From SAR86 cluster bacterium (GTDB taxonomy: Bacteria > Pseudomonadota > Gammaproteobacteria > Magnimaribacterales > D2472): a stretch of DNA of 40,886 bases. How positions within the stretch are numbered: the stretch's first letter is position 1; the number at the start of each line of letters is the position of its first letter. The stretch lies in assembly GCA_016779505.1 (NCBI GenBank), contig JADHNM010000003.1:1-40886 (forward strand), given 5' to 3'. Positions 19,500 to 40,802 of the stretch are shown here, in pieces. The notes below the pieces were generated by a model. That model had not been told where the DNA came from and made no database searches. It saw only the letters and a program-made list of their open reading frames with translations. Position numbers and translations under genes: made by a program.

Positions 19500-20315
19500 A
19501 TGAATACAAAATTTAAATTAGCTCTACTGTCTGTACCTTTTTTATTTGTTATTTCGTGCTCTCAGTCAAATGAGGTACAGGAATCTAAGCCAGCTTGGGA
19601 TGCAACAAATTACACTATGTACAACGAGTTTATGCAATGCACAGCTGGAGCAGAATATAGTCAAGATGCTCTTAATAACATGATTGAATCATGGAGAGAT
19701 CTTGGATTGTCTGAATCTTTGCTTGGAGGCTGGGGTTATGTGTCAGTATCTCCTGAACAAAGTGATTTTAACAATTATTGGGAATTAAGCTGGTCTTCAA
19801 AAGAAGAAGCTGATGCAGCTTGGGCGGAATGGATAGCCAATGAAGATGCTATGGCATGGAGTGAGGGGTCCTCTAAAATTCTTCAATGTGATGGTGAAAA
19901 TAGAGATGGTTATGATTTTATTTTTCCATATGACCCTTATGCTTTTGGTGAAGCCCCAGAAGATGGTTCTTTTGCTGCAGCGTTTAGCCCTTGCACACTG
20001 AATGAGGGCATGGGGCAGGAAGACCTTAATCAAGCTTTGATTAGCTACAATGCTTGGCTTGATGCAATAGACCAATCTCAAGTAAGTGGTTTTTATGCAT
20101 ATGGACTTTATATTCCTGAAGATAAAACTCAAGCAGAAGATTTCTGGTTTGGGAATTTTCATGAAAATCTTGCAACCATGACTGAAGGCAATGAGTTATG
20201 GGAGGCTACTGGAGGTGATGCAAAGATTGAGCTCGAGTCTGTTAGTACATGTGGCGAACCTGAAGTATCTAATGGCCAGGTATTTTTTGATCCAGCTAAG
20301 CCAGATTTCTCTTAG
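19500..20315 (+). CDS. Uncharacterised acidic lipoprotein with an internal duplication
   Basis: 271 aa; signal peptide with lipobox VISC (Cys20); GAGGT SD at 19487-19491; followed by a terminator. Confidence 0.8.
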   Translation: MNTKFKLALLSVPFLFVISCSQSNEVQESKPAWDATNYTMYNEFMQCTAGAEYSQDALNNMIESWRDLGLSESLLGGWGYVSVSPEQSDFNNYWELSWSSKEEADAAWAEWIANEDAMAWSEGSSKILQCDGENRDGYDFIFPYDPYAFGEAPEDGSFAAAFSPCTLNEGMGQEDLNQALISYNAWLDAIDQSQVSGFYAYGLYIPEDKTQAEDFWFGNFHENLATMTEGNELWEATGGDAKIELESVSTCGEPEVSNGQVFFDPAKPDFS

Positions 20316-25021: not shown

Positions 25022-25023
25022 CA

Positions 25024-25893
25024 ATGAACAAAATAGTTACTTACAAAGACATAATCGATCAGATGTCCGATGGAATGACTATCGGGGTTGGGGGTTGGGG
25101 TGCCCGTAGAAAACCTATGTCTTTAATAAGAGAGATTTGCAAATCAGATTTAAAGGATTTAACTGTTGTTAGTTATGGGGGCCCTGATGTTGGGTTATTG
25201 TGTGCTCATAAAAAAGTTAAAAAATTAATTTTTGGCTTTGTTTCATTGGATATGATCCCACTGGAAGCACACTTTCGCCAAGCTCGTCAAAAAAATGAAA
25301 TTGAAGTTATGGAGCTTGATGAGGGAATGGTGCAATGGGGTCTTCGAGCTGCTGCGATGCATTTACCGTTTTTACCTACTAGGGTGGGCTTGGGAACAGA
25401 TGTTTTAACGCATAATCCAGAATTAAAATTTGTTAGTTCACCATACCCTGATGCTGAAAAACTTGTTGCGATGCCTGCTCTGAATCTTGATGTTGCCTTA
25501 CTTCATGTAAATAAATCAGATGAAAAGGGCAATACTCAGATCGTTGGACCCGATCCATTTTTTGATGAACTCTTTGCAAGAGCTGCTAGTAAAACTTTTG
25601 TTTCAACAGAAGAGGTTGTAACAACAGAAGAGTTAGGAGGTAAAGATGGAGCAATGTTCAATAGGTTTGAAAGAAGCCTAGTTACTGGGGTATTACATTC
25701 ACCCTATGGAGCTCATCCAACTTCGTGCGCACCTAATTATGGTTTTGATATGCAGCATTTAAAAGAGTATTCAGATGCAGCAAAATCTTTTGATGAATAC
25801 AGTTCTAAATATCTTAATAAGACACATGAAGACTATATCGACTCTGTTGGGGGGTCCGAAGTAATTCAAAAAATACCTTTACCGCAATTTTAA
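25024..25893 (+). CDS. ipdA: Steroid ring-cleaving hydrolase subunit IpdA (ScdL1)
   Basis: GGWG.RRKPM, GFVSLD.IPLE.HF, DEGM, LPFLP.R.GLG.D, GAH.TSC.P.YG; start moved to ATG 25024. Confidence 0.9.
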   Translation: MNKIVTYKDIIDQMSDGMTIGVGGWGARRKPMSLIREICKSDLKDLTVVSYGGPDVGLLCAHKKVKKLIFGFVSLDMIPLEAHFRQARQKNEIEVMELDEGMVQWGLRAAAMHLPFLPTRVGLGTDVLTHNPELKFVSSPYPDAEKLVAMPALNLDVALLHVNKSDEKGNTQIVGPDPFFDELFARAASKTFVSTEEVVTTEELGGKDGAMFNRFERSLVTGVLHSPYGAHPTSCAPNYGFDMQHLKEYSDAAKSFDEYSSKYLNKTHEDYIDSVGGSEVIQKIPLPQF

Positions 25894-25894
25894 C

Positions 25895-26650
25895 ATGTCA
25901 GACTCACCTTCATTAGCAGAAATTTGTATTAGCGCATCTTCAAAGGCATGGCATGGAGATGGAGAAATTCTTGCTACGGGCATTGGTTTAATTCCAAGGA
26001 TAGCAGCAGGATTGGCAAAGTTAACACATAACCCAGATTTGATGATGACTGATGGTGAAACCTATCTTATTTCTAGGCCGGTCCCTATGGGTAAAAGGGA
26101 TGTTTCCAATGATCAGGTTGAAGGATACATGAGCTACAGTCGTGTATTTGAGAATTTATGGGGAGGTAAGAGACACGCCATGGTTACCCCAACGCAAATA
26201 GACTCTTTTGGGCAAACTAATATAAGCGCCATTGGTGATTACAATTCTCCAAAAGTTCAACTTCTTGGTGTAAGAGGTTTTCCAGGAAACTTTATTAATC
26301 ATAAAAACTCTATTTTTATACCCAATCATTCTGTAAAGACCTTTGTCGAAGGAGAGGTAGATATGGTTTCAGGAATGGGTTTTAAGAATAAAGATTTGTC
26401 AAACGGAAAGTTTGAAATCAAGCTCGTAGTTACAAACCTTGGTGTGTTTGATTTCAGTGGAGAGAACAATAATCTTCAATTACTGAGCCTGCATCCAGGT
26501 GTTAATGTTGATGATGTAGTTACAAATACTGGCTTTGATGTACTCATTAAATCAGATGAAATTACCTCAATGCCCTCTAATGAAGAACTAACTTTAATAA
26601 GAGAAGTTCTTGACCCTCAAGGCTTTCGCAATTCAATTTTTGGAGAATAA
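25895..26650 (+). CDS. ipdB: Steroid ring-cleaving hydrolase subunit IpdB (ScdL2)
   Basis: W.GDGEILA, TDGE, VEG, G.RH.M, QID.FGQTNISAIG, QLLGVRG.PGN..NH, SLHPGV. Confidence 0.9.
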   Translation: MSDSPSLAEICISASSKAWHGDGEILATGIGLIPRIAAGLAKLTHNPDLMMTDGETYLISRPVPMGKRDVSNDQVEGYMSYSRVFENLWGGKRHAMVTPTQIDSFGQTNISAIGDYNSPKVQLLGVRGFPGNFINHKNSIFIPNHSVKTFVEGEVDMVSGMGFKNKDLSNGKFEIKLVVTNLGVFDFSGENNNLQLLSLHPGVNVDDVVTNTGFDVLIKSDEITSMPSNEELTLIREVLDPQGFRNSIFGE

Positions 26651-26654
26651 AAAC

Positions 26655-27575
26655 ATGCCTAGAAGTAAACCTACAATTACCTATAAAAAGAAAGATCAAA
26701 TTGCAATCATTTCTATGAATAGGCCTGAATACAATAATGCTCAAAATGGCAAGATGACTTATGACCTAGACAAGGCTTTTAAAAGAGCGATTGATGATGA
26801 TGAGATTAAGGTTATTGTATTAAAAGGCAATGGCAAGCATTTTTCAGCAGGCCATGACATTGGAACACCTGGAAGAGATGTTGATGTTGAATATGATCGA
26901 AAATCAATGTGGTATGACCATACAAACAAACCTGGCGGCGAGTTTTGGTATGTGAGAGAGCAAGAAGTTTACTTGAATATGTGTAGACGCTGGAGAGATA
27001 TGCCTAAACCAACAATTGCTATGGTGCATGGAGCTTGTGTTGCAGGTGGCTGCATGTTGGCTTGGGTATGCGATCTTATTATTGCTTCCGAGGATGCTTT
27101 TTTTGCTGATCCTGTTGTGCGCATGGGAATTCCAGGGGTGGAGTACTTTGCTCATCCATATGAGTTGAACCCCAGAATTGCAAAAGAATTTTTATTTTTA
27201 GGAGAGAGAATGTCCTCATCAAGAGCCTATGAAATGGGCATGGTTAATAAGGTTGTTCCAATTGAGAATCTTGAGTCAACCGTTATGGAGATGGCCAAAA
27301 AAATATCTGCAATGCCAAGACTAGGTTTAACTTTAACAAAACAGGCTATTAATCACGTAGAAGACCTTCAAGGCAAAAGGAATGGAATGGAAGCTGCATT
27401 TGCATGGCATCATTTTGCTCATGCTCATAATGACCTAACTACTGGGAATATTTTATCTGGATTTGATGCCAAAAAAATGGCTAAATCTCAGCGAACTGCA
27501 TCTAAAAAAACTTCTGCAAAAAAGCCTGCAACTAATGCAGCTAAAAAACCTGATTTAAAGAAGAAAAAAAAATAG
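26655..27575 (+). CDS. Enoyl-CoA hydratase, EchA13/ScdN-like, with Lys-rich C-terminal tail
   Basis: NRPEY.NAQN..M.Y.LD.AF, GKHFSAGHDIG, DPVVRMGIPGVEYFAH; start moved to ATG 26655. Confidence 0.82.
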   Translation: MPRSKPTITYKKKDQIAIISMNRPEYNNAQNGKMTYDLDKAFKRAIDDDEIKVIVLKGNGKHFSAGHDIGTPGRDVDVEYDRKSMWYDHTNKPGGEFWYVREQEVYLNMCRRWRDMPKPTIAMVHGACVAGGCMLAWVCDLIIASEDAFFADPVVRMGIPGVEYFAHPYELNPRIAKEFLFLGERMSSSRAYEMGMVNKVVPIENLESTVMEMAKKISAMPRLGLTLTKQAINHVEDLQGKRNGMEAAFAWHHFAHAHNDLTTGNILSGFDAKKMAKSQRTASKKTSAKKPATNAAKKPDLKKKKK

Positions 27576-27608
27576 AAGAGACACATTATCAATAAATTAA
27601 CTGACATT

Positions 27609-28643
27609 TTGGGTTGCGATTACCCCATTATTCAAACTGCAATGGGTTGGGTTGCTTTGCCTGAGCTCGTGGCTGCTACTTCAAATGCGGGCGCTTTTGG
27701 TTTCTTAGCATTAGCAACCGCTGGACCAAAAGAGGCAATTGAAATGATGGATCAAACTTTGAGCCTGACTGATAAACCGTTTGGCGTAAATTTTCATATG
27801 TTCCAACCTGGAGCTGATGAGATTGTCCAAGCTATCTTAGATAGAAAGATTAAAGCTGTAAGCTATTCAAGATCCCCAACACCAGATTACATTAAAGCTT
27901 TCAAGCAACAAGGAATTGTATGCATACCTACAGTGGGCGCGCTTAAACATGCGATTAAAGCTGAGCAGCTTGGTGCCGACGCATTAGTTATTCAAGGTTC
28001 AGAAGGAGGGGGACACACAGGATCAACGCCAACAACCCTGTTGCTTAGTTCTGTCCTTGAGAATGTAGAAATTCCAGTAGTTGCTGCAGGCGGATTTCGA
28101 GATGGATCTGGTCTAGCTGCTTCTCTTGCATGGGGTGCATGCGGTATTGCAATGGGAACTCGCTTTATGATGACTGAAGAAAGTCCTGTTCCCAGTAAAA
28201 CTAAAGAGGCCTATCTATCAGCGCAAGTAGAAGAAATTAAAATAACCAAAAAATTTGATGGTTTGTCTCATCGTTTAATTTTCAACAAGTACATACAAAA
28301 AATAGATCGCTCAAATCCCATATCTTTATTCATCATGTCGGTGTCTTCAGCATGGAAATACAAACAAATTACCAAGGCTTCTTTTAGCGATCTTTTTAAA
28401 TCTTTTGTTGCGATGCTCAAGGGAGATGATTTAACTATCTCGCAATCAATTATGTCCGCTAACAGCCCTGCAATTATTCAAAAAGCAATGGTAGAGGGTT
28501 CACCTCATGAAGGCGCCATGCCATCAGGTCAAGTTGCTGGAATTATATCCAATCTTCCTTCATGCCAAGATTTAATTGATCAAATCATGGATGAGTTTGG
28601 AGTTGCAGCGGATAATTTTAAAAAGATTCAGGATAAATTATGA
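27609..28643 (+). CDS. ipdC: IpdC/ScdK flavin-dependent enoyl-CoA reductase (nitronate monooxygenase fold); true start probably upstream at about 27585
   Basis: YPIIQTAMGWV, PFGVN, QGSEGGGHTG, AAGGF.DG.GL, AMGTRF, SGQV.G.I..LPSC. Confidence 0.85.
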   Translation: MGCDYPIIQTAMGWVALPELVAATSNAGAFGFLALATAGPKEAIEMMDQTLSLTDKPFGVNFHMFQPGADEIVQAILDRKIKAVSYSRSPTPDYIKAFKQQGIVCIPTVGALKHAIKAEQLGADALVIQGSEGGGHTGSTPTTLLLSSVLENVEIPVVAAGGFRDGSGLAASLAWGACGIAMGTRFMMTEESPVPSKTKEAYLSAQVEEIKITKKFDGLSHRLIFNKYIQKIDRSNPISLFIMSVSSAWKYKQITKASFSDLFKSFVAMLKGDDLTISQSIMSANSPAIIQKAMVEGSPHEGAMPSGQVAGIISNLPSCQDLIDQIMDEFGVAADNFKKIQDKL

Positions 28644-29401
28644 GTGTTGAAACTTCTATTAATGAGGGTGTTGCTGAAATTATTTTAGATTGCCCTCCTG
28701 TAAATGCTTTAACCTCAACAGAATGGCTAGATTTAGCAATAAATATTGATCATCTTGCTCACAATAATGAAGTAAGGGTTATCGTAATATCTGCTAAAGG
28801 AAAAGGTTTTTGTGCTGGCGCTGATATCAAAGAACTGCAAGAGGACCCCACTAAAATTACAGATGTTAATGATGGTTGCTGGAAAACCGCGAGAGCAATT
28901 CATGTTTCAAATGTTCCTGTAATTTCAGCTTGTCATGGATTCATACTCGGTGGTGGTATTTTACTAGCAGGCGCTTCTGATATTGTTCTAGCGACAGAGG
29001 ATTCTTATTTTGGCTTGCCTGAAATTGATAGAGGCGCTCTAGGTGGAGGCGCTCATTTAAGCCGTCTTTTTCCCTTGCAGGCAGTTCGAAAAATGATGTT
29101 TACTGGCAAACCTATTTCTGCCCAACGAGCGTATGAATATGGTTCCATTGAGTCGCTGCATCCAGATTTAGATTCTGTCCGTGAAGCTTCATTAGTTATT
29201 GCTCATGACATAGCTTCTAAGAGCCCTATAGCGATGAACTTAGCTAAAAAAGCCTTGAATGAAATTGAGAATGGTAATGTTGATGAAAATTACAAGTCTG
29301 AGCAAACGTTTACTTTAGAGCTTTATAAATCTAAAGATTCTCAAGAAGCTCGAGATGCATTCGTAGAAAAAAGAGATGCAGATTTTAAAGATGAAGATTA
29401 A
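28640..29401 (+). CDS. echA20: Enoyl-CoA hydratase EchA20/ScdY-like
   Basis: PPVNAL, GKGFCAG.DIKE, FGLPE.DRGALG...HLSRL.P; cluster position after ipdC. Confidence 0.85.
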   Translation: MSVETSINEGVAEIILDCPPVNALTSTEWLDLAINIDHLAHNNEVRVIVISAKGKGFCAGADIKELQEDPTKITDVNDGCWKTARAIHVSNVPVISACHGFILGGGILLAGASDIVLATEDSYFGLPEIDRGALGGGAHLSRLFPLQAVRKMMFTGKPISAQRAYEYGSIESLHPDLDSVREASLVIAHDIASKSPIAMNLAKKALNEIENGNVDENYKSEQTFTLELYKSKDSQEARDAFVEKRDADFKDED

Positions 29402-30542
29402 GTTCACTAAAGAAGAGAATACTTTTAGGAGAGAAGTGCGATCTTGGTTGGAGAGCCATGTTCCAAAAAAACCACTTTTATCATTAGATACAAAAGAGGG
29501 CTTTGAACAACACAGAGAGTGGGAGAGAACCCTGAATCAAGGAAATTGGGCAATGGTTACTTGGCCAAAAGAGTACGGAGGCAGAGGTTTGGATTTAATC
29601 CAATGGTTAATCTTTGAGGAGGAGTATTATCGAGCTGAAGCTCCCACAAGGGTGAATCAAAATGGAGTTTTTTTACTTGGTCCAACCTTGATGGAATTTG
29701 GAACCCATGAGCAGAAATCTAAATTTTTAAATGCCATGGCTACCGGTGATCATATATGGGCTCAAGGCTGGTCTGAGCCAGGCGCAGGAAGTGATATGGC
29801 CGCTATTAGAACAACTGCAGTGTTAGAAGGCGATCATTATAAAATTAATGGGCAAAAAACTTGGTCCTCAAGGGCAACATATGCTGATTGGACCTTTGGA
29901 TTGTTCAGAACGGATTTAGAGTCCGAAAGACACAGAGGATTATCTTTTATTTTAGTTCCATTAGATCTTCCTGGCATTACTGTCAGGCCTATTCCTCAGC
30001 TGGATGGTGAACCAGGCTTTGCTGAAATATATTTTGATGATGTAGAAGTTCCTGTAGAAAATCTTCTTGGCGGTGACGGGGACGGCTGGAAAATTGCAAT
30101 GGCAACTGCAGGTTTTGAAAGAGGTCTAATGTTAAGAAGCCCTGCTCGTTTTCAACAAACAGCTGCAAAATTAATGGAGCTTTATCTTGCCAAACAAGAT
30201 CATTGTTCCCCAATGATCCAAGCTAAGATTGTTGAAGCATGGGCTCAATCAGAATCATATGCTTTAAGCATTTACCATACGGCATCAAAAATGCTTGCTG
30301 GAGGCTCTATTGGCTCAGAATCAAGTTTAGGTAAGATTTTTTGGTCTGAGCTTGATCATATGATGCACCAAACAGCATTGAAAATCTTAGGAGCCAGCGC
30401 AGAACTTTCTCAAGAATCACAAGATGATGCAGCAAAATGGATCAAAGGCTTTATGTTTTCTTATGCTGGGCCAATCTATGCAGGCACAAATGAAATTCAA
30501 AAAAATATTATTGCAGAGAGGTTATTAGGGCTGCCCAAATAA
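29391..30542 (+). CDS. Acyl-CoA dehydrogenase FadE31/ScdM1-like
   Basis: EGFEQHREW, WLIFEEEY.RA.AP.R, WAQGWSEPGAGSD, GQKTWSSRA, GPIYAGTNEIQ.NIIAERLLGLP; start moved to ATG 29391. Confidence 0.85.
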   Translation: MKIKFTKEENTFRREVRSWLESHVPKKPLLSLDTKEGFEQHREWERTLNQGNWAMVTWPKEYGGRGLDLIQWLIFEEEYYRAEAPTRVNQNGVFLLGPTLMEFGTHEQKSKFLNAMATGDHIWAQGWSEPGAGSDMAAIRTTAVLEGDHYKINGQKTWSSRATYADWTFGLFRTDLESERHRGLSFILVPLDLPGITVRPIPQLDGEPGFAEIYFDDVEVPVENLLGGDGDGWKIAMATAGFERGLMLRSPARFQQTAAKLMELYLAKQDHCSPMIQAKIVEAWAQSESYALSIYHTASKMLAGGSIGSESSLGKIFWSELDHMMHQTALKILGASAELSQESQDDAAKWIKGFMFSYAGPIYAGTNEIQKNIIAERLLGLPK

Positions 30543-30545
30543 AAG

Positions 30546-31583
30546 ATGAACTTTATTTTTACTGAAGAACAAATGCAATTTAAGGATGCTATCAAGTCTT
30601 TTTTGATAGATGAATGCTCTCCGAAATCCATTAGAGAGGGCTGGGATACAAAAAAATCTTTCAATCCAGACAGATGGAAAGGTTTATTTGAGCTAGGTGT
30701 TTTAAATTCTAATCTTCCGGAAGATAAAGGTGGTTTAGGCATGGACCAAGTGACGCTAGCATTGATGGTTGAAGAGATGGGTTACGCTGGTCTGCCTGAG
30801 CCAGTGGCTGAACAAACTTTTTTAGTAAATGATTTGATTTCGCTTCTGCCCAAAGATATAGGTAAAGCCATTGAAGAGACTTATGATGCTGGAGCAAAAT
30901 ATATATCACTCGCTCACCCATTGGCTCCCAATCCGTTATTTATTGCTGATTCAGCTGGACTTATTTTATTTGATGATTCCCAGTGTAAGTTCATAGCTAA
31001 AGAGGATTTGAATTTTGAAATCATTGCATCCAATGATCCATCAAGGGAGATTTATAAGATAAATTCAACCAATAATGTAATTTCTTCGGCTGAAAATTTT
31101 GAAGAATTGAATTCTGCGGTTTCTGCAAGAGGAGCATTAATGACAGCAGCTTTGTTAATTGGATTGGCTCAAAAAATGATAGATTTAAGCTCAGCCTATG
31201 TCTTAGATAGAACTCAATTTGGCAAGCCAATTGGATCCTTTCAGGCTGTTAAGCATATGTTGGCTGATGTGGCAGTTAAAATTGAGTTTGCAAAACCTGC
31301 TGTTTACAGAGCAGCTTATTCTTTGTCTGAAAATAATCCGAAATCTGCTTTACATTGTGCTCACGCAAAACTTATGTGTGCTCAAGCTGCTGAACTCGCA
31401 TGTAAAAATAGTATTCAGGCTCATGGAGCAATGGGCTATACCTGGGAGATGGATCTTCATATATACATGAGAAAAGCCTGGTCGATGATGGCTTGTTGGG
31501 GCAATGAGGACAGGCAACAAGATATAATTTTTAAGACACTGTCTTCCACTAGTGAAGAGCTTGGTGTTTTATATACTTTTTAG
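30546..31583 (+). CDS. Acyl-CoA dehydrogenase partner subunit FadE32/ScdM2-like
   Basis: Short (345 aa) ACAD with RTQFGKPIGSFQAVKH.LADV and IQAHGAMGYTWE.DL; adjacent to the FadE31-like gene, typical of heteromeric steroid ACADs. Confidence 0.82.
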   Translation: MNFIFTEEQMQFKDAIKSFLIDECSPKSIREGWDTKKSFNPDRWKGLFELGVLNSNLPEDKGGLGMDQVTLALMVEEMGYAGLPEPVAEQTFLVNDLISLLPKDIGKAIEETYDAGAKYISLAHPLAPNPLFIADSAGLILFDDSQCKFIAKEDLNFEIIASNDPSREIYKINSTNNVISSAENFEELNSAVSARGALMTAALLIGLAQKMIDLSSAYVLDRTQFGKPIGSFQAVKHMLADVAVKIEFAKPAVYRAAYSLSENNPKSALHCAHAKLMCAQAAELACKNSIQAHGAMGYTWEMDLHIYMRKAWSMMACWGNEDRQQDIIFKTLSSTSEELGVLYTF

Positions 31584-31595
31584 GGGGACATAGGT

Positions 31596-32750
31596 ATGCG
31601 AGATGCATTCATAGTTAGCGCGTTGAGAACACCAATAGGAAAAAAGAAAGGCACTTTATCAAATATGCACCCTGCTGATTTAGGGGCTGTAGTTCTTTCT
31701 GCAACCTTTGATCAAGTAGATTTAGACTCAGGGTTAGTTGAGGATGTAATTTTTGGTTGCGTTGATACAGTTGGACCTCAAGCTGGTGACATAGCAAGGA
31801 CCTGTTGGTTGGCTGCAGGTCTTCCTGAGCATGTTCCAGGGACAACCGTTGACCGTCAATGTGGCTCATCTCAGCAAGCCGTTCATTTTGCCGCTCAAGC
31901 TATTATGTCAGGTACTTCTGATGTAGTTATTGCTGGAGGCGTTCAAAACATGAATATGATTCCTATATCTTATGCCATGATTGCTGGACAAGCGCTAGGT
32001 TTTGCAGATCCATTCTCTGGATCAAAAGGCTGGGTTAATCGCTATGGTAATAAAGAAGTAAGTCAGTTTAATTCAGCACAGATGATTGCAGAAAAATGGA
32101 ATATATCCAGATTAGAGATGGAAAACTATGCATACCAAAGCCATCAAAAAGCCATGAGCGCTATTGAAAAAGGCTTGTTTAAAGATGAAATTGTTTCAGT
32201 TCAAGATTTTGATACTGATGAGACTCCAAGAGCGGAAACTTCATTGGAAAAAATGGCTTCCTTGAATCCATTGATTGAGGGCCATGATATTACAGCCGCT
32301 ATTTCTTCGCAAAATGCAGATGCATCTTCAGCTATTTTGATTGTTTCAGAAAAAATTCTTAAAGAGCATAACCTTACCCCCTTAGCAAGAATAGCGCATA
32401 TAAGTGTTAGAGCCGATGACCCAATCTGGATGCTTACCGCGCCTATGCCTGCAACAGAATATGCAGTCAAAAAGTCAGGCATCCAATTACATGAAATTGG
32501 TTTGGTTGAGATAAATGAAGCGTTTGCATCTGTTGCTATGGCTTGGCAAAAAGAAATGGAGTACCCAATGGATCAAATTAATATAAGCGGGGGAGCAATT
32601 GCTCTTGGCCATCCACTCGGAGCAACCGGCGCCCGATTGATGACTACCATGGTTCATAATATGAAAAGAAATAATATTAAATATGGTTTGCAAACAATGT
32701 GTGAAGGCGGAGGCCAGGCAAACGTTACAATTTTAGAGAATTGCTCATGA
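31596..32750 (+). CDS. fadA6: Thiolase FadA6/ScdF-like
   Basis: HPADLGA, GPQAGDIART.WL.AG, TVDRQCGSSQQAVHFAAQA, NEAFA, GHPLGATG, TMCEGGGQAN. Confidence 0.88.
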   Translation: MRDAFIVSALRTPIGKKKGTLSNMHPADLGAVVLSATFDQVDLDSGLVEDVIFGCVDTVGPQAGDIARTCWLAAGLPEHVPGTTVDRQCGSSQQAVHFAAQAIMSGTSDVVIAGGVQNMNMIPISYAMIAGQALGFADPFSGSKGWVNRYGNKEVSQFNSAQMIAEKWNISRLEMENYAYQSHQKAMSAIEKGLFKDEIVSVQDFDTDETPRAETSLEKMASLNPLIEGHDITAAISSQNADASSAILIVSEKILKEHNLTPLARIAHISVRADDPIWMLTAPMPATEYAVKKSGIQLHEIGLVEINEAFASVAMAWQKEMEYPMDQINISGGAIALGHPLGATGARLMTTMVHNMKRNNIKYGLQTMCEGGGQANVTILENCS

Positions 32751-33529
32751 ACAATTTAATGAATCCAAAATATCCTGAGGGAAGAAATCTTTTTCAAGAT
32801 AAGAATATCTTAATAACTGCTGCTGCTGGGTCTGGAATTGGTTTTTCAACAGCTAAGCGATTTCTTGAGGAGGGAGCAAATATTTTTATTTCTGATGTTC
32901 ACCAGGGCAGATTAGATGAGGCAATAGAAAGTTTACGAAAATTGAAGATGGGTGAAGTTCAGGGTTGTCTTTGTAATGTCACGAGTGATGAAGAAATTGA
33001 AGCAATGTTCAAAGAGGCTATTGCTTGCTATTCATCTTTAAATGGAGTGATTAATAACGCTGGGCTTGGGGGAGAGTCCTTGTTAGAAAATATGACCAAC
33101 GATGCTTGGGATCTAGTAATGGACGTTACCCTTAATGGTGCGATGAAAATTATGAGAGCCGCCATTCCAGTGCTTAAAGACACACAAGGCGTAATTGTTA
33201 ACAATGCATCTGTATTAGGCTGGAGAGCGCAAGCAGGTCAATCTCACTATGCTGCCGCAAAGGCTGGAGTGATGGCTTTAACAAGGTGTGTTGCATTAGA
33301 AACCGTAGATCATGGAATTAGAATAAATGCAGTAGCTCCGAGCCTTGCAATGAATCCACATCTGTCCAAGACTAGCTCAAATGAATTGATTGCTGAATTA
33401 GAATCTAAAGAAGCTTTTGGAAGAGGGGCAGAGCCATGGGAGATTGCGAATATTATTTTATTTTTAGCATCAGATCTTTCTTCATATATGACTGGTGAGG
33501 TAATATCTGCATCATCTCAAAGGGCATAG
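32747..33529 (+). CDS. ipdF: SDR IpdF/ScdE-like (HIP-CoA pathway dehydrogenase)
   Basis: Distinctive ITAAAGSGIG, NNAGLGG, VNNASVLGWRAQ.GQ.HYAAAKAGVMALTRC, EAFGR.AEPWE; ATGA overlap at 32747. Confidence 0.88.
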   Translation: MNNLMNPKYPEGRNLFQDKNILITAAAGSGIGFSTAKRFLEEGANIFISDVHQGRLDEAIESLRKLKMGEVQGCLCNVTSDEEIEAMFKEAIACYSSLNGVINNAGLGGESLLENMTNDAWDLVMDVTLNGAMKIMRAAIPVLKDTQGVIVNNASVLGWRAQAGQSHYAAAKAGVMALTRCVALETVDHGIRINAVAPSLAMNPHLSKTSSNELIAELESKEAFGRGAEPWEIANIILFLASDLSSYMTGEVISASSQRA

Positions 33530-34222
33530 ATGGAAAAGCTAGCCTATCAACTTTGGAAAAAAGATGATGATAGTCTAGAAACTTTTAAAGAATTACTTCT
33601 AAAAAACCTCAGTAAAGATATAGGAAAGTTAGTTTCAGAATTGCAAATCAATATTGCTGATGCTGATGTTTTGCCAGCAAATAATTTAGCGCAATCAAAC
33701 TATCCACCCGCGCCAAATGCAGTAATATTCATAAAAGTAAAAAGTTATTTTTTAGCAGATACACTCGAAAGTCATTTAGAAAAAATTACAAATAAAATTT
33801 ATGGCTTTGTTGTCAGTGAATCAATTATTTTAGATAACTTAAAAAAGAGTCCTTTGGGCTCAAGATCAGAAGGGTTTTCACAAGTTGTTTTTTTAGAGAA
33901 GCCAGAATCAATGTCTACATATGACTGGTTTAATCACTGGACCAATCACCACACAAACATCGCCATTCAAACCCAATCTAATTTTATTTATGTTCAAAAT
34001 ACAGTTGTTAGACCTTTGCAGAAAGCATCTCCTTCATTTATTGCAATTGTCGAGGAGTGCTTTCCATCTGAGGCCATGACAGATCCAGAGGTTTTTTATG
34101 ATGCCAAAAATAATCCAGAGCAATTGGCAAAACATGCTCAGATTATGATGGATAGTTGCGAGAAATTTATAGACTTTAATAAAATTGAGGTAATTCCTAC
34201 AAGTAGGTATAGAATAATTTAA
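33530..34222 (+). CDS. EthD-like (dimeric alpha+beta barrel) domain protein
   Basis: C-terminal half W..HW..HH..IA..TQ..F.YVQN.VVR...AIVEE.FP...DP..FY.A resembles EthD-type domains; 0-bp gap to ipdF. Confidence 0.6.
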   Translation: MEKLAYQLWKKDDDSLETFKELLLKNLSKDIGKLVSELQINIADADVLPANNLAQSNYPPAPNAVIFIKVKSYFLADTLESHLEKITNKIYGFVVSESIILDNLKKSPLGSRSEGFSQVVFLEKPESMSTYDWFNHWTNHHTNIAIQTQSNFIYVQNTVVRPLQKASPSFIAIVEECFPSEAMTDPEVFYDAKNNPEQLAKHAQIMMDSCEKFIDFNKIEVIPTSRYRII

Positions 34223-34257
34223 GCGTATAAAGAAATTAAGAGAGAGGAGAAGACAAT

Positions 34258-35031
34258 ATGAATGATTTAAAAGTTGCATTGGTTACAGGAGCTGCAAGTG
34301 GGATGGGCAGAATTTCCTCTAAAAAGCTAGCTGCTGAAGGTGTGCATGTTGCAGCTGTAGATGTAAATGAAGAAGGATTAAATGAGCTCAAACAAGAATC
34401 AAATAACATTTCTATTTTTCCATGTGATTTATCGGATTCAAATGCCGTCAAGACTATGGTTCAGCAGGTTCAATCAGAGGTAGGTTCAATTGATAGAGTT
34501 ACCCAAGCAGGCGCAGTAATGCCAATGGCAAGAATTCAAGATTTAGACGCATCTTCAATAAATAATTTAATGAGAATTAATTATGAGGGTACTGTAAACA
34601 TTGTGAGTAATGTTTTGCCATCAATGCTTGAAAAAAATAATGGGCAAATAATACTTTTTGGTTCCATTGCAGGAATGTGCCCTCTCGAAAAAATGTCCGC
34701 TTATTGTGCTTCTAAAGCAGCCGTAAATATTTTTGGCGAAATCTTGGCTAAAGAGGTTAAAGATACAAATATTAGAGTTATGGTAGTTTGTCCAGCTCAA
34801 ACCGATACTCCTTTGATGAGATTTGTTGATGAGACTGATGCGCCTGATGCAATTAATACTGCAGTGAAAAAAGGAATGCTTTGCGATCCAGAGGAAGTGG
34901 TTAATCAAATCGAAAAAGACTTACTGACTGATAAAATTATTTGTTATCCTTCAAAAGAAGCTGTATATGCCACCAGGATAAGAAGATTTTTCCCAAATTA
35001 TTGGTGGAAATTAGTTCAAAAAAACTCATAA
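34258..35031 (+). CDS. Short-chain dehydrogenase/reductase
   Basis: TGAASGMG, YCASK; AGGAG SD at 34245-34249. Confidence 0.9.
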   Translation: MNDLKVALVTGAASGMGRISSKKLAAEGVHVAAVDVNEEGLNELKQESNNISIFPCDLSDSNAVKTMVQQVQSEVGSIDRVTQAGAVMPMARIQDLDASSINNLMRINYEGTVNIVSNVLPSMLEKNNGQIILFGSIAGMCPLEKMSAYCASKAAVNIFGEILAKEVKDTNIRVMVVCPAQTDTPLMRFVDETDAPDAINTAVKKGMLCDPEEVVNQIEKDLLTDKIICYPSKEAVYATRIRRFFPNYWWKLVQKNS

Positions 35032-35042
35032 TAAAATAGACC

Positions 35043-36392
35043 ATGGAATATATTAATAAATTACCTCCTGATAATAGAGATCTTTCTATGTTCCCGGGGC
35101 AATATGGCTGGCCTTTTCTTGGCAAGACAGTCGAGCTAGTTAAAGATACCTTGGCAATGTGCAACAAGCACTATGATAGATATGGTCCTGTTTCTAGGTT
35201 AGACATGGTTCGTAATCAAAGAGTTTTAATGTGTCTAGGTCCAGAATTTAATGAGGCAGCTTTATTTGATCCCAATGGTAATTTTAGTGTTGCTGGTGGT
35301 TATGCAAGTTCGCTAGGCACCTTATACCCTGAGGGTATGTTGCTTAGGGATGACAAAAAACATAAAAAAACAAGAAGGGCATCCCAACCAGCTTTCAAGA
35401 CTGATGCACTTAAATCCTATGTGGATATGTTAATTCCTATTCAAGAGCGTCGCATTCAGGCGCTTCCCGTTGAAGAGGAGTTTGTATTCTATGACAATAT
35501 TCAAGAAACATTAATGGATGTCGCTGCAAGAGTGTTCATAGGCTTAGATGAAAAAAGTCCAGAAGCACAAAGATTGAGTTACCTTTTTTCAACAATTAAT
35601 GAGGGCCTGGTAACTCCCTTGCCCTATGATCTGCCATTTTTAAAATTTAGAAAATCTATGCAGGCTCGCGAAGAGCTTAGAGAATTTTTTATTTCAAATA
35701 TTCCTAAAAGAAGGGGCTCTGATGCTCAAGATATGTTTACAAGATATTGCAATGCTCAAGATGAGGATGGTGAGTATCTAGAAGATGTCGATATTGATGG
35801 GCATATGGCATTTTTATTATTTGCAGCATTTGATACCACAACAAGTGCACTGACAAATATCCTTTATTACCTAGGTAAAAATCCTCAATGGCAGGAAAAG
35901 GTTCGGAATGAAATTTTTAGTGTCAGCAATGAAATGCCTACATTTGAAGACATGGCGGAGATGACTATGACCGAATATGTTTTTCAAGAGACGTTGAGAT
36001 TCTATCCATCAGTTATGATTTTAAATAGGCGTACTACCAGAGATGTAAATGTTGCTGGATATGACATACCTGCAAATACTGTTGTTATGCTTAGCCCACC
36101 ATTTACTCACCGTATGGAAGAATGGTGGTCAAACCCTTTAGAGTTTGATCCTATGAGATTTTCTCCAGAAAGAGCCGAACATAAAAAACATGGTTTTAGT
36201 TATGTGCCATTTGGTGGCGGTGCGCATAAATGTATTGGTATGCATTTTGCAATGATGAATGCAAAACTTTATTTATTTAGATTGCTTAAAAATTATAAAG
36301 TGAATCTTAGATCTAATTACGATCCTGCATTCATGCATGTGCATCTGCCAAGGCCAATAGATGGCTTGCCATTAACTTTAACTAGGATTTAG
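35043..36392 (+). CDS. Cytochrome P450 (CYP136-like by motif)
   Basis: I-helix AAFDTT, ETLR (ExxR), FDP.RF.PER, haem motif FGGGAHKCIG. Confidence 0.93.
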   Translation: MEYINKLPPDNRDLSMFPGQYGWPFLGKTVELVKDTLAMCNKHYDRYGPVSRLDMVRNQRVLMCLGPEFNEAALFDPNGNFSVAGGYASSLGTLYPEGMLLRDDKKHKKTRRASQPAFKTDALKSYVDMLIPIQERRIQALPVEEEFVFYDNIQETLMDVAARVFIGLDEKSPEAQRLSYLFSTINEGLVTPLPYDLPFLKFRKSMQAREELREFFISNIPKRRGSDAQDMFTRYCNAQDEDGEYLEDVDIDGHMAFLLFAAFDTTTSALTNILYYLGKNPQWQEKVRNEIFSVSNEMPTFEDMAEMTMTEYVFQETLRFYPSVMILNRRTTRDVNVAGYDIPANTVVMLSPPFTHRMEEWWSNPLEFDPMRFSPERAEHKKHGFSYVPFGGGAHKCIGMHFAMMNAKLYLFRLLKNYKVNLRSNYDPAFMHVHLPRPIDGLPLTLTRI

Positions 36393-36396
36393 TTCG

Positions 36397-37206
36397 ATGA
36401 TTCCTCAAGGCTCCTATTTAGAAGTCGAGAATGACTTTAATTTTCATTATTATGACGAGGGAGATGGGGATGTTGTGGTTTTATTGCATGGCAGTGGAAC
36501 TGGTGCATCCGGGCATACAAATTTTAAAAATAATTTTATAGCTTTGAAAGAAGCAGGATATAGAGTAATTTTGCCTGACCTTCCTGGGTATGGTTTCTCA
36601 AGCAAGCCAGAGGATGAAACCTATTCACTGGAATATTTTAATACTAAAATACTCCAGCTCCTCGATGCACTAAAAGTTGAATCATTCTCGTTAATTGGAA
36701 ATAGTTTAGGTGGGGCACTGGCCTTAGGTCTTGCTTTGAGTCATCCCAAAAGAGTAGAGAAATTAATTCTTATGGCTCCTGGCGGTGTTGAAGACCAAGA
36801 TACTTATAACAAAATGCCAGGCATACAGAAACTTCTTGCTGATTTCTTGGGTGGAGAGATGAATCAAGAAAAAATAGAGGGCTTGCTTTCGCTTTTTCCA
36901 TATGACTCTTCAATTATTTCTGATGAAATGGTGTCAGATAGAATGGAAATACTTCCATTGATGAATTCGCAAGTTTTAGCTTCAATGACGATACCAAATA
37001 TGGAAAAAGATCTTTTTAAGATTCAACATCCTATTCTTGCTTTTTGGGGCATCAATGATCAGTTTATTCCCGTATCAGGCTCGATGAAGATTGGTGAAAA
37101 ATGTCCAAATGCTCAGATCATGCTTTTTAGCCAATGTGGACATTGGGTTATGATTGAGAAAGAGCAAATTTTTAATGAGGCCTGCATTAATTTCTTATCA
37201 GCTTAA
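36397..37206 (+). CDS. Meta-cleavage product (C-C) hydrolase, HsaD/TesD/BphD family
   Basis: LHGSG.GASG..NF, GNSLGG, LMAPGG, WG.ND.F.P, CGHWV. Confidence 0.85.
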   Translation: MIPQGSYLEVENDFNFHYYDEGDGDVVVLLHGSGTGASGHTNFKNNFIALKEAGYRVILPDLPGYGFSSKPEDETYSLEYFNTKILQLLDALKVESFSLIGNSLGGALALGLALSHPKRVEKLILMAPGGVEDQDTYNKMPGIQKLLADFLGGEMNQEKIEGLLSLFPYDSSIISDEMVSDRMEILPLMNSQVLASMTIPNMEKDLFKIQHPILAFWGINDQFIPVSGSMKIGEKCPNAQIMLFSQCGHWVMIEKEQIFNEACINFLSA

Positions 37207-37208
37207 AT

Positions 37209-37994
37209 ATGAATTTAAACACTATAAATGATATAGCTTCAGAGCTGTTTTTGGCTTTAAAAAACCAAGAAACAGTTCAGCCACTTTCTGACAAATATGA
37301 TGAGATAGATATTAATGATGCTTATCAAATTTCTCGAAAGTTTCTTTCCTTAAGAGAAGACCAAGGTGAAAAGGTTATTGGAAAGAAAATCGGTGTTACA
37401 AGTCCAGTTGTTCAAGAAATGCTTGGGGTCAACCAACCAGATTTTGGTTTTTTAACAGACAATATGCAAGTTAAAAATAAATCGAATTTCTCAATAAAAA
37501 ATTCTTTGATTCAACCTAGAGCAGAAGCTGAAATTGCTTTTATTTTAAAAGAAGATATTTCAGGACCTGGAATTTCAAAGGAAGATGTCATTCTCGCAAC
37601 TGATAAAATTGTTCCATGTTTTGAAATTGTTGACTCAAGAATTGATGATTGGAAAATTAAAATTCAAGATACTATTGCTGATAATGCATCATGTGGAATT
37701 TTTGTTTTAGGAGAAGGATCATCTTCCCCTGAAAAGTTTCCAATGGATGAGTTGGAGGTAATTGTTCATAAGAATGGAGAATTTTTGTCATCAGGCTTTG
37801 GTTCTGCGGTTCAAGGTCATCCAGCAGAAGCAGTTGCGTGGCTTGCTAATACTTTGGGTGAATATGACATCCCATTACTCAAAGGTGAGTTTATTTTATC
37901 AGGATCTCTGGTTCCTCTAGAGCCAGCAATTGCTGGCGATAGTTTTTCATTAGAGCTCAAGGGTGTTGGAACCTGCGAAATTAATTTTATCTAA
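37209..37994 (+). CDS. 2-hydroxy-dienoate hydratase (TesE/HsaE/MhpD family)
   Basis: [54 protein letters not shown]. Confidence 0.92.
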
Positions 37995-37996
37995 TT

Positions 37997-38920
37997 ATGA
38001 GCAAAGTCAAATGTGCAATTATTGGATCTGGAAATATCGGCACAGATCTGATGTTAAAAATTATTAAAACCTCTCAATCATTATCTTTAAATGGAGTGAT
38101 TGGCATTGACCCTGAGTCTGAAGGTCTAGCAATGGCAAAATCTCATAATATTGCGATTTCATCAACCGGCTTGCAGGGCTTTATGGAAATGGATGAGTAT
38201 CGAGATACTGAAATATTTTTTGATGCAACTTCTGCTGGTGCCCATAAAAATCATCATGATTTAATTATTAATGATGGCAAGCAGATGATAGACCTTACCC
38301 CAGCAGCAATAGGCCCATATTGCGTCCCAGTTGTTAATTTAACGGAACATTTAAAAGAAAAGAATGTAAACATGGTGACCTGCGGAGGCCAAGCTACCAT
38401 CCCAATGGTTGCAGCGGTTAATCAAGTTTCTAGCGTTAAATATGCTGAGATAGTTGCATCTGTTTCTTCAAAGTCTGCTGGACCAGGAACAAGGGCGAAC
38501 ATTGATGAATTTACTCAAACAACTAAGCTAGGGCTTGAAAAAGTTGGAGGGGCAGACAGAGCTAAAGCAATCATAGTGCTTAATCCTGCTGAGCCCCCTT
38601 TATTAATGAGAAATACTGTTTTTACTTTATGTGATCCTGTTGATCAAGAGTTAGTTAAAGATAGCATTGAGGCAATGGTAGACCGTGTTCAGTCTTATGT
38701 ACCTGGCTATAGATTAAAGCAAGAAGTTCAATTTGAAAGATTTGGCTCTAATAATCCATGCCTTATTCCTGGCTATGGTGAGTTTGAGGGACTAAAAGCA
38801 TCGATTTTCTTAGAAGTGGAGGGTGCTGGACACTATTTGCCTACTTATGCAGGGAATCTAGATATTATGACCTCTGCTGCTATGGGAACCGCACAGGAAT
38901 TAATTAAACTTAACTCATGA
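37997..38920 (+). CDS. Acylating aldehyde dehydrogenase (TesF/HsaG/MhpF family)
   Basis: [58 protein letters not shown]. Confidence 0.95.
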
Positions 38921-39933
38921 GTAAGCTTTATATACAAGATGTCACGTTGAGAGATGGTATGCACGCAATAAGACATCAATATGGTTTAGATCATGTAATT
39001 GAGATTGCAAAGGCATTAGATGAAGCTAAAGTTGATGCCATTGAGGTCGCTCATGGAGATGGTTTGTCTGGGTCTTCTTTTAATTATGGTTTTGGAGCTC
39101 ATACAGATAAAGAATGGATTGGAGCAGTTGCTGAGAAATTAAATTATGCAAAACTTACAACTCTTATTTTGCCTGGAATTGCAATTAAAGAAGATCTTAA
39201 GTGGGCATGGGATCTTGGGGTTAGATCGGTCAGAGTTGCAACTCACTGCACCGAGGCAGATGTTTCAAAGCAGCACATAGAGTTTGCAAGAGAATTAGGT
39301 ATGGATACCATTGGTTTTTTGATGATGTCACATATGACCTCACCATCCAACTTAGCAGAACAGGCCAAATTGATGGAGTCCTATGGAGCTGAATGTGTAT
39401 ATGTTGTTGATTCGGGCGGCGCATTGAGCATGGAAGATGTAGCAGATAGATTTAAAGCTTTTAAAGATACCTTGGATTCTTCAACCCAAACAGGCATGCA
39501 TGCGCATCATAATTTATCTTTAGGAGTTGCTAATTCAATTGTTGCTGTTGAAAATGGAGCAAATCGAGTTGATGCAAGTCTTGCGGGTATGGGGGCTGGA
39601 GCAGGAAATGCCCCTCTTGAAGTTTTTATTGCTGCAATTGATAGATTGGGGTGGGAACATGGAACAGATCTCTTTAAATTAATGGATGCTGCTGAAGAGC
39701 TGGTTCGCCCATTGCAGGATAGGCCCGTAAGAGTCGATAGAGAAACATTAACATTGGGTTATGCTGGCGTTTACTCATCCTTCCTCAGGCATGCTGAATC
39801 AGCTGCTGAAACTTATGATCTTGATACAAGAGAAATTCTTGTTGAGCTAGGAAAGAGAAAGATGGTTGGCGGTCAAGAAGATATGATTGTCGATGTAGCC
39901 TTGGATTTATTAAAAAAGAAATCTCAATCATGA
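38917..39933 (+). CDS. 4-hydroxy-2-oxoacid aldolase (TesG/HsaF/MhpE family)
   Basis: [53 protein letters not shown]. Confidence 0.95.
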
Positions 39934-40802
39934 AAATTGGCATGACCCTTCCGGTCATGGAGCCTGATTTATCCAGGCAAGACTTAGAGGATTGGACGTT
40001 GAGAATAGATGCTGGTCCATGGTCGCATATTGCCTTGGGAGAAAGAATTTTATTTCCCAACCCTGAATTCATCTCTACTTTAAGTGCAGTCGCTGCCTGG
40101 ACCAAGCGTGTGGAGATCATTGCAACCATATCTGTTTTGACAATGCATAACCCAATATTGAGCGCTAAACAGTTTGCAACAATTGATATGATCTCAGAGG
40201 GTAGGTTTACCCTTGGTGTAGGGGTTGGGGGTAGAGAAGAAGACTATAATGCTATTGGCTCCACATGGTCTGATAGAAGGTGGGCTACACTTTCTGATCG
40301 TGTTAAAACCATGCAATCAGTTTGGTCAAAGGAATATCATCCTAGTTTAGGGCCAACACCCTTTTCTATGAATGGACCTCAAATATTGGCAGGCGCAGTA
40401 GGTCCTAAGGCCATGGAAATGTCGGCTGATTTTGCAGATGGCTTGGCTGGATTTTCATTTAATGCAGATATTGAAGAAATCAAAGATTCATTTAATCGAG
40501 TGCAAAAAGCATTTGAAGAAAAAAATAAATCTCCTAGGTTGGTCACCAGTTTCTGGTTTGGGCTAGGTAAATCTGCTCGATCAGACATTCAAACCCACCT
40601 TGAAAGGTATTTAAGTTGGATGGGAGATGATCTTGCAAGAGATTTAGCAAAAACAGCAGGTTTTTCAGGTAGTCAAAGTGATTTGAACGATTTTCTCTTA
40701 TTGGTCAAGGCTGCTGGCGCAACAGATGTAATTTTGGTGCCTACATCAAAAAACATTGAACAATTAATCTTGGCAGAAGAGGTGATTGCTGGATTTGGCT
40801 AA
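39930..40802 (+). CDS. LLM class flavin-dependent oxidoreductase
   Basis: [44 protein letters not shown]; ATGA overlap with the aldolase. Confidence 0.88.

Follow-up and report, generated by a model that had tools for sequence, protein, structure and literature searches.

What might three genes, encoding an EthD-like protein, a classical SDR and a cytochrome P450, be doing in the midst of the 9,10-seco steroid operon that a SAR86-type bacterium carries? SAR86 reportedly accounts for as much as 6% of the surface-ocean community, and steroid-ring degradation genes are reported from few of its genera (PMC11582366); the term "P450" is absent from the main text of that paper. We found no description of the cassette in the full-text literature on SAR86 with steroid or cytochrome P450, or on EthD with steroid degradation. 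The window, that is, the whole stretch of 40,886 nucleotides analyzed here, is an entire contig (C3) of a genome assembled to 0.95 Mb and 75% complete, and ends 84 nt past the gene of a luciferase-like (LLM) oxidoreductase; therefore, that a gene is missing here tells us little about the rest of the genome. We hold it about evenly balanced whether the cassette is a conserved steroid-tailoring module of the operon, with functions as proposed below.

All the genes of the operon lie on the + strand. The first encodes an hsaC-like extradiol dioxygenase (24119..25021) with the Pfam domains Glyoxalase and BphC_D1 and with NCBIfam scores of 258 bits for HsaC and 280 bits for BphC, both below cut-off. 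It is followed by the ipdA- and ipdB-like CoA-transferase subunits (24988..26650; Pfam CoA_trans in both ORFs), in the order seen in a plasmid block of Vibrio alfacsensis; by an echA20-like hydratase, an ipdC-like NMO-family reductase and a second enoyl-CoA hydratase (26610..29401; Pfam ECH_1, NMO and ECH_1; NCBIfam PRK08290 at 446 bits and PRK07938 at 308 bits); and by two acyl-CoA dehydrogenase subunits and a thiolase assigned to HIP side-chain beta-oxidation (29376..32750; Pfam matches; NCBIfam IpdE2-like at 120 bits, and PRK07801 for the thiolase at 641 bits, above cut-off). The ipdF-like gene (32741..33529) is so labeled here as an SDR passing the NCBIfam PRK07831 cut-off (383.8 bits, cut-off 336). 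Then comes the cassette, whose EthD-like (33530..34222), SDR (34258..35031) and P450 (35043..36392) genes are real ORFs lying exactly where the original prediction had put them. Downstream are the gene of an hsaD-like meta-cleavage product hydrolase (36397..37206; Pfam Abhydrolase_1), for which NCBIfam HsaD was the best model at 183 bits (cut-off 400) and BphD reached 175 bits, both below cut-off; the hsaE-, hsaG- and hsaF-like genes for a hydratase, an acetaldehyde dehydrogenase and an aldolase (37209..39933; Pfam FAA_hydrolase, AcetDehyd-dimer, and HMGL-like with DmpG_comm; NCBIfam dmpE at 350 bits); and, last before the contig end, the LLM oxidoreductase gene (39930..40802; Pfam Bac_luciferase, 103 bits; TIGR03619, 104 bits, below cut-off).

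Intergenic gaps from hsaC to the LLM gene range from -41 to +35 nt, and those around the cassette measure 0 (ipdF to EthD), 35, 11 and 4 nt (P450 to hsaD). Scans of the stretch gave no excess of promoters (29 sites against 59.2 +/- 8.9 in shuffles) or of terminators (12 sites against 12.1). Contigs from RNA libraries in all four runs, from four studies, match the cassette at 95% or more and span all four of its junctions, although such contigs may contain DNA and are no proof of a transcript. Parts of the stretch had no cover in runs X6 and X12.

The original view, that the cassette is a non-canonical insertion into an operon for 9,10-seco steroid degradation, held up. The cassette is conserved in three genera (g1, g334 and g335) of the ten in the family. 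The full order, hsaC to ipdF, EthD, SDR, P450, hsaD, hsaE, hsaG, hsaF and LLM, is kept in G012, in G446 and in the single-contig genome G445. Orthologues of the P450 (E<=1e-60) were found in 22 of the 27 genomes of g1, 8 of 9 of g334 and all three of g335, and in none of the 81 genomes that represent the seven remaining genera. They are 68-99% identical within the three genera overall and 68-79% between genera; the corresponding between-genera values are 62-82% for the SDR, 38-55% for the EthD-like protein and 42-45% for one acyl-CoA dehydrogenase. Some apparent exceptions were set aside. The EthD and P450 genes are both split in G009, which might be read as joint decay, but the thiolase gene is split too and poor assembly is equally likely; G008 and G021, taken for cluster-free genomes, both hold ipdA, which indicates contig breakage and not absence.

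Pfam named the EthD domain after a protein of the ether-degradation cluster ethABCD of Rhodococcus. The SAR86 protein (230 aa) has the EthD domain in common with it, but matches the model, PF07110, with its C-terminal half only (residues 126-216; 37.8 bits, cut-off 22), and its gene is not accompanied by reductase or ferredoxin genes. A search of PDB sequences with the protein gave no match. A closer relation appears in the steroid literature: a full-length alignment (35% identity over 244 columns, E 2e-48) joins the protein to WP_011906908.1, listed in Table 2 of PMC12175502 as a homologue 62% identical to Hsh3 (Nov2c681), the 7beta-hydroxysteroid dehydratase of Sphingobium sp. Chol11. The sphingomonad homologues in that table span 62-84% identity, and the SAR86 protein falls below this range, with only 35% identity to WP_011906908.1, which itself marks the 62% end. 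It is 34-39% identical to 20 further plasmid-borne copies, and of the 21 plasmid records that have an EthD-like match, 20 recur, by accession comparison, in the listed HsaC-like matches. The AF2 model (mean pLDDT 97.5) builds two repeats from 8 strands and 7 helices, and its Foldseek matches are tandem ferredoxin-like barrels at TM 0.5-0.6; it is thus, as in Hsh3, a single-chain, near mirror-symmetric alpha/beta barrel of two repeats with an EthD domain. By its sequence, the protein is shown to belong to the Hsh3 family as a distant member, homologous along its whole length. Steroid catabolic genes share the replicon or operon in both cases, but the SAR86 gene sits inside the HIP operon right after ipdF, whereas hsh3 is described as lying outside the main clusters (PMC12175502).

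The EthD-like gene also directly follows ipdF in G025, a genome from a SAR86 family whose cluster has neither the cassette SDR (SDR257) nor the P450 adjacent. This position, along with the homology to a steroid dehydratase, speaks against the idea that the EthD-like protein is a P450 accessory, and it bears on a different reading of the first two cassette genes. In Comamonas, ScdD and ScdE are the hydratase and the 3-hydroxyacyl-CoA dehydrogenase of HIP propionate side-chain beta-oxidation. The block from hsaC to ipdF, with its acyl-CoA dehydrogenases, thiolase, two crotonase-type hydratases and ipdF, holds no other dehydrogenase and would lack both roles, and the EthD-like protein and the SDR could be the ones to fill them, with a separate role for the P450. 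The 0-nt gap to ipdF would suit this, as would the finding that Sphingobium cells without Hsh3 are left with a HIP compound bearing the former 7beta-hydroxyl on its side chain (PMC12175502). However, G025 keeps the EthD gene without an adjacent SDR257, the V. alfacsensis block has neither an EthD-like gene nor the SDR, and the substrates of purified Hsh3 are free steroids with intact rings (PMC12175502). We consider this assignment to beta-oxidation rather improbable.

The second gene encodes, as far as its sequence tells, what is shown to be an intact classical SDR of 257 aa (Pfam adh_short, 164.9 bits), with TGAASGMG at residue 10 as its cofactor motif TGxxxGxG and YCASK at residue 149 as its catalytic motif YxxxK. 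No NCBIfam model scored above cut-off, an Atlas search returned generic SDR names only, and the PDB sequence matches were unspecific. SDRs encoded beside EthD genes in Rhodococcus and Novosphingobium were tried as orthologues of the cassette SDR and rejected at only 21-26% identity; the LLM protein encoded beside the R. gordoniae EthD gene was likewise discarded as a counterpart of that of the window, with 27% identity over 130 aa only.

The P450 (449 aa; Pfam p450, 235.8 bits) has an intact core, with the acid-alcohol pair of the I-helix in AAFDTT at residue 261, the ExxR motif as ETLR at 316 and the heme-thiolate loop FGGGAHKCIG at 390. The nearest solved structure is 9WAT (154 bits, E 4e-44), which is CYP204A3, a P450scc; however, CYP120A1 (149 bits) and CYP51 (140 bits) score nearly as well. 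The bacterial P450scc enzymes CYP204A2, A3 and A5 (PMC12808266) likewise come from steroid degraders, but identity to the CYP204 proteins of the Novosphingobium replicons pNL2, ES2-1 p1 and PP1Y Mpl is only 27-28%, short of the 40% used as the CYP family line in PMC12808266, whereas the pNL2 protein matches 9WAT with 925 bits. That study drew P450-A1 to A7 from 265 genomes of the Bergstrand set, which includes SAR86. Closer relatives, at 33-46% identity, are uncharacterized, and the marine gammaproteobacterial group to which the protein belongs counts 1170 proteins at E<=1e-20, with no functional name among the best 120 of the 1170. The original prediction was right to assign it to a poorly characterized group; we place it in an uncharacterized family near CYP204, CYP120 and CYP51, in the CYP51-related part of the superfamily. 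CYP136 comes in only through a protein of the BD1-7 clade, 42% identical, which an automatic annotation calls "Putative cytochrome P450 136".

The sphingomonad loci offer the closest parallel to the cassette. On the same three Novosphingobium replicons, genes for an Hsh3 homologue, an SDR and CYP204 stand in this order, which is that of the SAR86 cassette; at another Novosphingobium locus, P6W, the EthD gene occurs but CYP204 does not. The parallel has its limits, since the SDRs of the SAR86 and Novosphingobium cassettes are not orthologous (21-28% identity), and CYP204 is accompanied by a ferredoxin gene, whereas a profile search of the window found none beside the SAR86 P450. It is tempting to see in the cassette an anciently diverged counterpart of the Hsh3/SDR/CYP204 set, whose P450 would found a CYP family of its own and would by itself remove or open the side chain of sterols, but we regard this as rather improbable.

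The gene order also bears on the question of whether the P450 and the SDR deal with steroids at all. They could work together as an omega-hydroxylase and its alcohol dehydrogenase, of general use on lipids other than steroids (isoprenoids or alkyl chains, for example), and merely share the operon. The P450 of G025 (52% identical) is encoded far from the steroid cluster of that genome, in a gene that overlaps an Fe-ADH gene; the P450 of the Rhodococcus plasmid pR8L1 (32% identical) lies beside SDR, aldehyde dehydrogenase and fatty-acid CoA ligase genes; and at ten loci of distant relatives (30-43% identity) no steroid genes are nearby. On the other side, three genera keep the pair at this place in the operon, the gaps being 4-35 nt, the P450 has the same distribution as the steroid cluster, and the order parallels that of the sphingomonad steroid loci, so that we find a non-steroid function unlikely.

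The main idea of the original prediction was a replacement of HsaAB or KshAB: aided by the SDR, the P450 would be an A-ring 4-hydroxylase, converting 3-HSA to 3,4-DHSA, or a C9 hydroxylase. In its favor, the P450 gene lies directly upstream of hsaD, a place held by tesA1A2 in Comamonas and by hsaA in Mycobacterium. Profile searches confirmed that hsaA, hsaB and kshA are all missing from the window, which is only the one contig, and the HsaA-like gene was not found in the genome of the window (G000), in G012 (2 contigs, 87% complete) or in G002, G015, G021, G023 and G535. An analogous 4-hydroxylation of estrone is known for P450s, among them AedA and, by function, EdcA, likewise set in a steroid catabolic cluster beside an extradiol pathway (PMC8085986). 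In ES2-1, the region around hsaC contained no EdcA. The resemblance ends there, as the AedA orthologue of P. equi DSSKP-R-001 plas2 (407 aa) matches the SAR86 P450 at only 25% over 183 aa, within the generic C-terminal core, and the proposal of an AedA-type estrone 4-hydroxylase did not hold.

The relatives, moreover, do not lack the enzymes to be replaced. An HsaA-like gene (345-399 bits on the HsaA model, cut-off 450) was detected in 21 of 27 genomes of g1, 8 of 9 of g334 and 2 of 3 of g335, that is, in 31 of the 39 genomes of the three cluster-bearing genera, and in 0 of 81 genomes elsewhere, which is about the detection expected of a universal gene given the genome completeness. Its distribution over genera equals that of the P450. 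In relatives it lies about 125-145 kb from the cassette, and in G446 it adjoins a KshA_C gene (232 bits). A KshA-type gene pair follows directly downstream of the LLM gene in relatives, within the cluster, and KshA_C genes number 3-4 per genome in the four relatives searched and one in G000. As for the HsaA-negative genomes, G000, G002, G012, G016 and G023 have no orthologue of the PDH E2 gene that neighbors HsaA, only paralogues at 29-31% identity; the whole region is thus missing from these five genomes, and the absence of HsaA cannot be judged there. At the DNA level, a search of the HsaA-negative genomes for this locus was too insensitive. Contrary to the picture of a lineage without HsaA- and KshA-type genes, both are present in relatives, and therefore nothing requires the P450 to stand in for HsaAB or KshAB. 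We regard such a replacement as very improbable. Among the roles first proposed for the P450, side-chain oxidation stays the most plausible, whereas the argument from missing hsaAB and kshAB has fallen.

The cassette thus probably serves in tailoring or funneling steroids into the pathway rather than in replacing HsaA or KshA. The EthD-like protein would remove or add water at a steroid hydroxyl, most likely the former C7 one, on either the intact steroid or the HIP propionate side chain, and the SDR would oxidize a steroid or side-chain hydroxyl. The P450, which would receive electrons from a ferredoxin encoded elsewhere, may oxidize the sterol side chain, by cleavage or hydroxylation, or another alkyl carbon, and this step would give natural sterols access to the core pathway whose genes surround the cassette. 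That relatives of the P450 are encoded next to genes for alcohol and aldehyde oxidation, as in G025 and on pR8L1, favors this reading too. Granted a tailoring role, action on the side chain comes somewhat short of an even chance, and a CYP204-like C20-C22 cleavage is a clearly slimmer prospect. CYP125 and CYP142 are sterol C26-monooxygenases, and Proteobacteria are without orthologues of them (PMC4810484); the SAR86 P450 may have an analogous role at the start of sterol side-chain degradation.

With the EthD-like gene, the recently described Hsh3 family extends to marine Gammaproteobacteria and Acidimicrobiia and is tied to the HIP operon. Action of the P450 on sterols, if confirmed, would be the first function for a large marine gammaproteobacterial P450 group, and it would reveal how membrane sterols are taken up in streamlined oligotrophs. 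Should a single enzyme indeed remove the side chain, a bacterium of about 1.3 Mb, belonging to a clade that ranks among the most abundant in the surface ocean, would be able to feed phytoplankton sterols into a ring-degradation operon without a long side-chain pathway.

The assembly of the source genome (G000; 947,742 bp, 62 contigs, 75% complete, about 38% G+C) holds the window as the entire contig C3. From 24119 to 40802, eighteen forward-strand ORFs follow one another with intergenic gaps of -41 to +35 nt. An hsaC-like dioxygenase gene comes first, then ipdA, ipdB and an echA20-like hydratase gene, an NMO-family ipdC-like gene and a second hydratase gene, genes for two acyl-CoA dehydrogenase (ACAD) subunits and a thiolase, an ipdF-type SDR gene, the EthD-like, SDR and P450 genes, an hsaD-like hydrolase gene, hsaE-, hsaG- and hsaF-like genes and, last, a gene for a luciferase-like oxidoreductase (LLM). 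The cassette predicted between ipdF and the hsaD-like gene is thus present; its three ORFs (33530-34222, 34258-35031 and 35043-36392) have exactly the boundaries predicted and, by their motifs, appear intact. The NMO-family ("nitronate monooxygenase") gene, at 27609-28643, occupies the slot expected for ipdC in the ipd block. SAR86 genes of this kind were interpreted, in the available part of Dupont et al. (2012), as nitropropane dioxygenases for nitroaromatics; a role in degradation of the steroid C/D rings seems more likely for this one. A few kb upstream of the operon, on the reverse strand, lies a gene for a 531-aa FAD oxidoreductase of the CrtI/CrtO family (17817-19412), which scored 272 bits with the CrtO model, far below the cut-off of 1000, and by these matches is not of the KstD type. 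A forward-strand ORF of 271 aa (19500-20315) gave no Pfam or NCBIfam match and is 44-69% identical to ORFs at the same position in G012, of the source genus, and G445, of a second genus.

The cassette is conserved and is probably expressed. P450 orthologues (E<=1e-60) are present in 22 of 27 genomes of the source genus, 8 of 9 of the second genus and 3 of 3 of a third, and in none of the 81 genomes sampled from the family's other seven genera. The order from hsaC to ipdF, EthD, SDR, P450, hsaD and hsaE onward is unchanged in G012, G445 (a single-contig assembly) and G446, of the third genus. Between genera, identity is 68-79% for the P450 and 62-82% for the SDR, falling to 38-55% for the EthD-like protein and 42-45% for one ACAD. 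Fourteen RNA-labelled sequencing runs contain over half of the words sampled from 32741-37206, and in all four runs examined, from four studies, contigs of at least 95% identity cover this interval and span the ipdF/EthD, EthD/SDR, SDR/P450 and P450/hsaD junctions (e.g., records 3, 4 and 7 of run X1 and 22 and 23 of run X5); since DNA may be present in RNA libraries and contigs are not equivalent to transcripts, this is no more than a hint of expression. In a single cluster-bearing genome, G009 (locus L059, G009:C2:66000-82000), stops or frameshifts break the genes for the thiolase, the EthD-like protein and the P450 among intact neighbors, which may reflect assembly errors or local decay.

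The original prediction took hsaAB and kshAB to be missing and proposed the SDR and P450 as an alternative oxidative entry. That premise fails, as the contig ends 84 nt past the LLM gene and relatives carry a KshA-type pair downstream of it: in G012, G009 and G445 the LLM gene is followed by genes for a Rieske protein, a KshA_C protein and a FadD3-like CoA ligase, with two AsnC regulators interposed in the source genus. In G000 itself we found a KshA_C paralogue only, on contig C39. In those three relatives the KshA-type oxygenase, lying just past the position equivalent to 40886, is encoded by two ORFs (L034:2527-3821 in G012, L059:14143-15442 in G009, L076:14505-15772 in G445), the first with a Rieske domain only (134-145 aa) and the second with KshA_C only (281-288 aa), the N-terminus of the latter resembling a Rieske domain devoid of the Cys/His cluster ligands. 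The same arrangement occurs in two genera, with a 4-nt overlap of the ORFs in G445, and may represent a genuinely two-protein KshA.

An HsaA model had no match in G000; it matched proteins with 345-399 bits (cut-off 450) in 21 of 27, 8 of 9 and 2 of 3 genomes of the same three genera and in 0 of 81 from the others. This is the distribution of the steroid cluster, contrary to the expected anti-correlation of the cassette with hsaA. Among NCBIfam models, the HsaA-like protein of G011, of the source genus, scores highest with HsaA (394 bits; the runner-up reaches 250). About 145 kb separate its gene from the P450 gene; in G445 the distance is about 124 kb. Weak HsaB-like flavin reductases (51-68 bits) occur in G000 and four relatives. 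The available text of Freel et al. (2024; PMC11582366) already lists, for a few genera within a single SAR86 family, tesI, hsaA, hsaC, hsaD, fadD3, kshA and kstD. In G446 (G446:C1:50058-52179) the HsaA-like gene directly adjoins a single-polypeptide KshA_C gene (232 bits), and in G011 (loci L046/L047) it is flanked by two carboxylesterase genes on one side and the PDH E2/E1 genes on the other. On the other side of the argument, the HsaA search was also negative in G012 (2 contigs, 87% complete) and five further cluster-bearing genomes. In five HsaA-negative genomes (G000, G002, G012, G016 and G023), however, the sole counterpart of the PDH E2 that adjoins HsaA in G011 was a paralogue of 29-31% identity; as the E2 orthologue is absent too, the whole region is missing from them, either as a variable island or through regular failure of assembly or binning.

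The EthD-like gene belongs with ipdF, and its product is a relative of Hsh3. The protein is 35% identical over its full length (E 2e-48) to WP_011906908.1, the copy on pNL2 of N. aromaticivorans, which the available text of Richtsmeier et al. (2025; PMC12175502) lists as a 62%-identical homologue of Hsh3, a purified 7beta-hydroxysteroid dehydratase of Sphingobium sp. Chol11. In its AF2 model (pLDDT 97.5) a single chain forms a double ferredoxin-like barrel, as described there for Hsh3. According to the same text, an hsh3 deletion mutant accumulates a HIP compound (a steroid C/D-ring intermediate) retaining the former 7beta-hydroxyl, which fits the place of the EthD gene in the HIP operon. The cluster of G025, a genome from another SAR86 family, runs hsaC, ipdA, ipdB, echA20, ipdC, ech, ACADs, thiolase, ACADs, ipdF, EthD, hsaE and a TonB receptor gene; SDR, P450 and hsaD were not found there. 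A profile of five EthD-like proteins matched 192 clusters (E<=1e-30), mostly full-length at 220-250 aa. Among ten looked up, those with an organism name were from Gammaproteobacteria and Acidimicrobiia, with "hypothetical protein" or "EthD domain-containing protein" as the only product names. Only 2 of 399 other gammaproteobacterial genomes have a copy. In the plasmid collection 21 records do, 20 of them, by accession, also among the listed HsaC-like matches; many are from related Sphingobium strains and so not independent. On plasmid pDND3A of Rhodococcus gordoniae (L081:8218-13761), genes for an alpha/beta hydrolase, a TIGR03619-type LLM, an EthD-like protein (35% to that of SAR86), an SDR, an NTF2 protein and a FAD oxidoreductase represent the same enzyme types as those around the cassette, although the LLMs are only 27% identical. 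Plasmid pYa108 of Vibrio alfacsensis (L074) carries the ten-gene hsaC-to-ipdF block in identical order, with HsaC at 44% identity and an amidase gene coming next. This block resembles a portable unit, its downstream end differing between lineages.

In Novosphingobium the three protein types of the cassette recur in the same order: genes for an Hsh3 homologue, an SDR and CYP204 are contiguous on one strand in p1 of Novosphingobium sp. ES2-1 and in Mpl of PP1Y, from which, we presume, the CYP204A2 accession of the CYP204 paper comes. In pNL2 the Hsh3 homologue is followed by an inserted regulator, and in P6W the EthD gene is present without CYP204. The EthD proteins are 35-36% identical to those of SAR86, whereas the SDRs (21-28%) are not orthologous; in pNL2 and ES2-1 the next gene encodes a 2Fe-2S ferredoxin, unlike in the SAR86 cassette.

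The cassette P450 is the only one found in G000, and its G025 orthologue (52%) lies away from the steroid cluster, overlapping an Fe-ADH gene. Its best solved relatives are 9WAT (154 bits), CYP120A1 (149), CYP51 (140) and CYP170A1 (136), so that CYP120 and CYP51 trail 9WAT only slightly. The 9WAT structure is that of CYP204A3, a bacterial P450scc converting cholestenone to progesterone via 20- and 22-hydroxylation; the CYP204 family is widespread in steroid degraders, according to the available text of Tian et al. (2025; PMC12808266). Being only 27-28% identical to the CYP204 proteins, the SAR86 enzyme is not a member of that family, nor is it AedA-like. It does belong, as predicted, to a large, poorly characterized group (1170 proteins at E<=1e-20), which includes proteins of 41-46% identity assigned by name to Sinobacterium, Litorivivens, Pseudohalioglobus and the BD1-7 clade. 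Steroid-ring catabolism in SAR86, Hsh3 and CYP204 are already published; in the texts reached by our literature searches we found no description of the cassette, of its link to the HIP operon or of a function for this P450 group.

The cassette is best seen as a putative steroid-tailoring or funnelling module within the core operon, in which the EthD-like protein would act as a C7-type (de)hydratase, the SDR as a hydroxyl dehydrogenase and the third enzyme as a steroid P450, whose putative target is most likely the side chain or another alkyl carbon.
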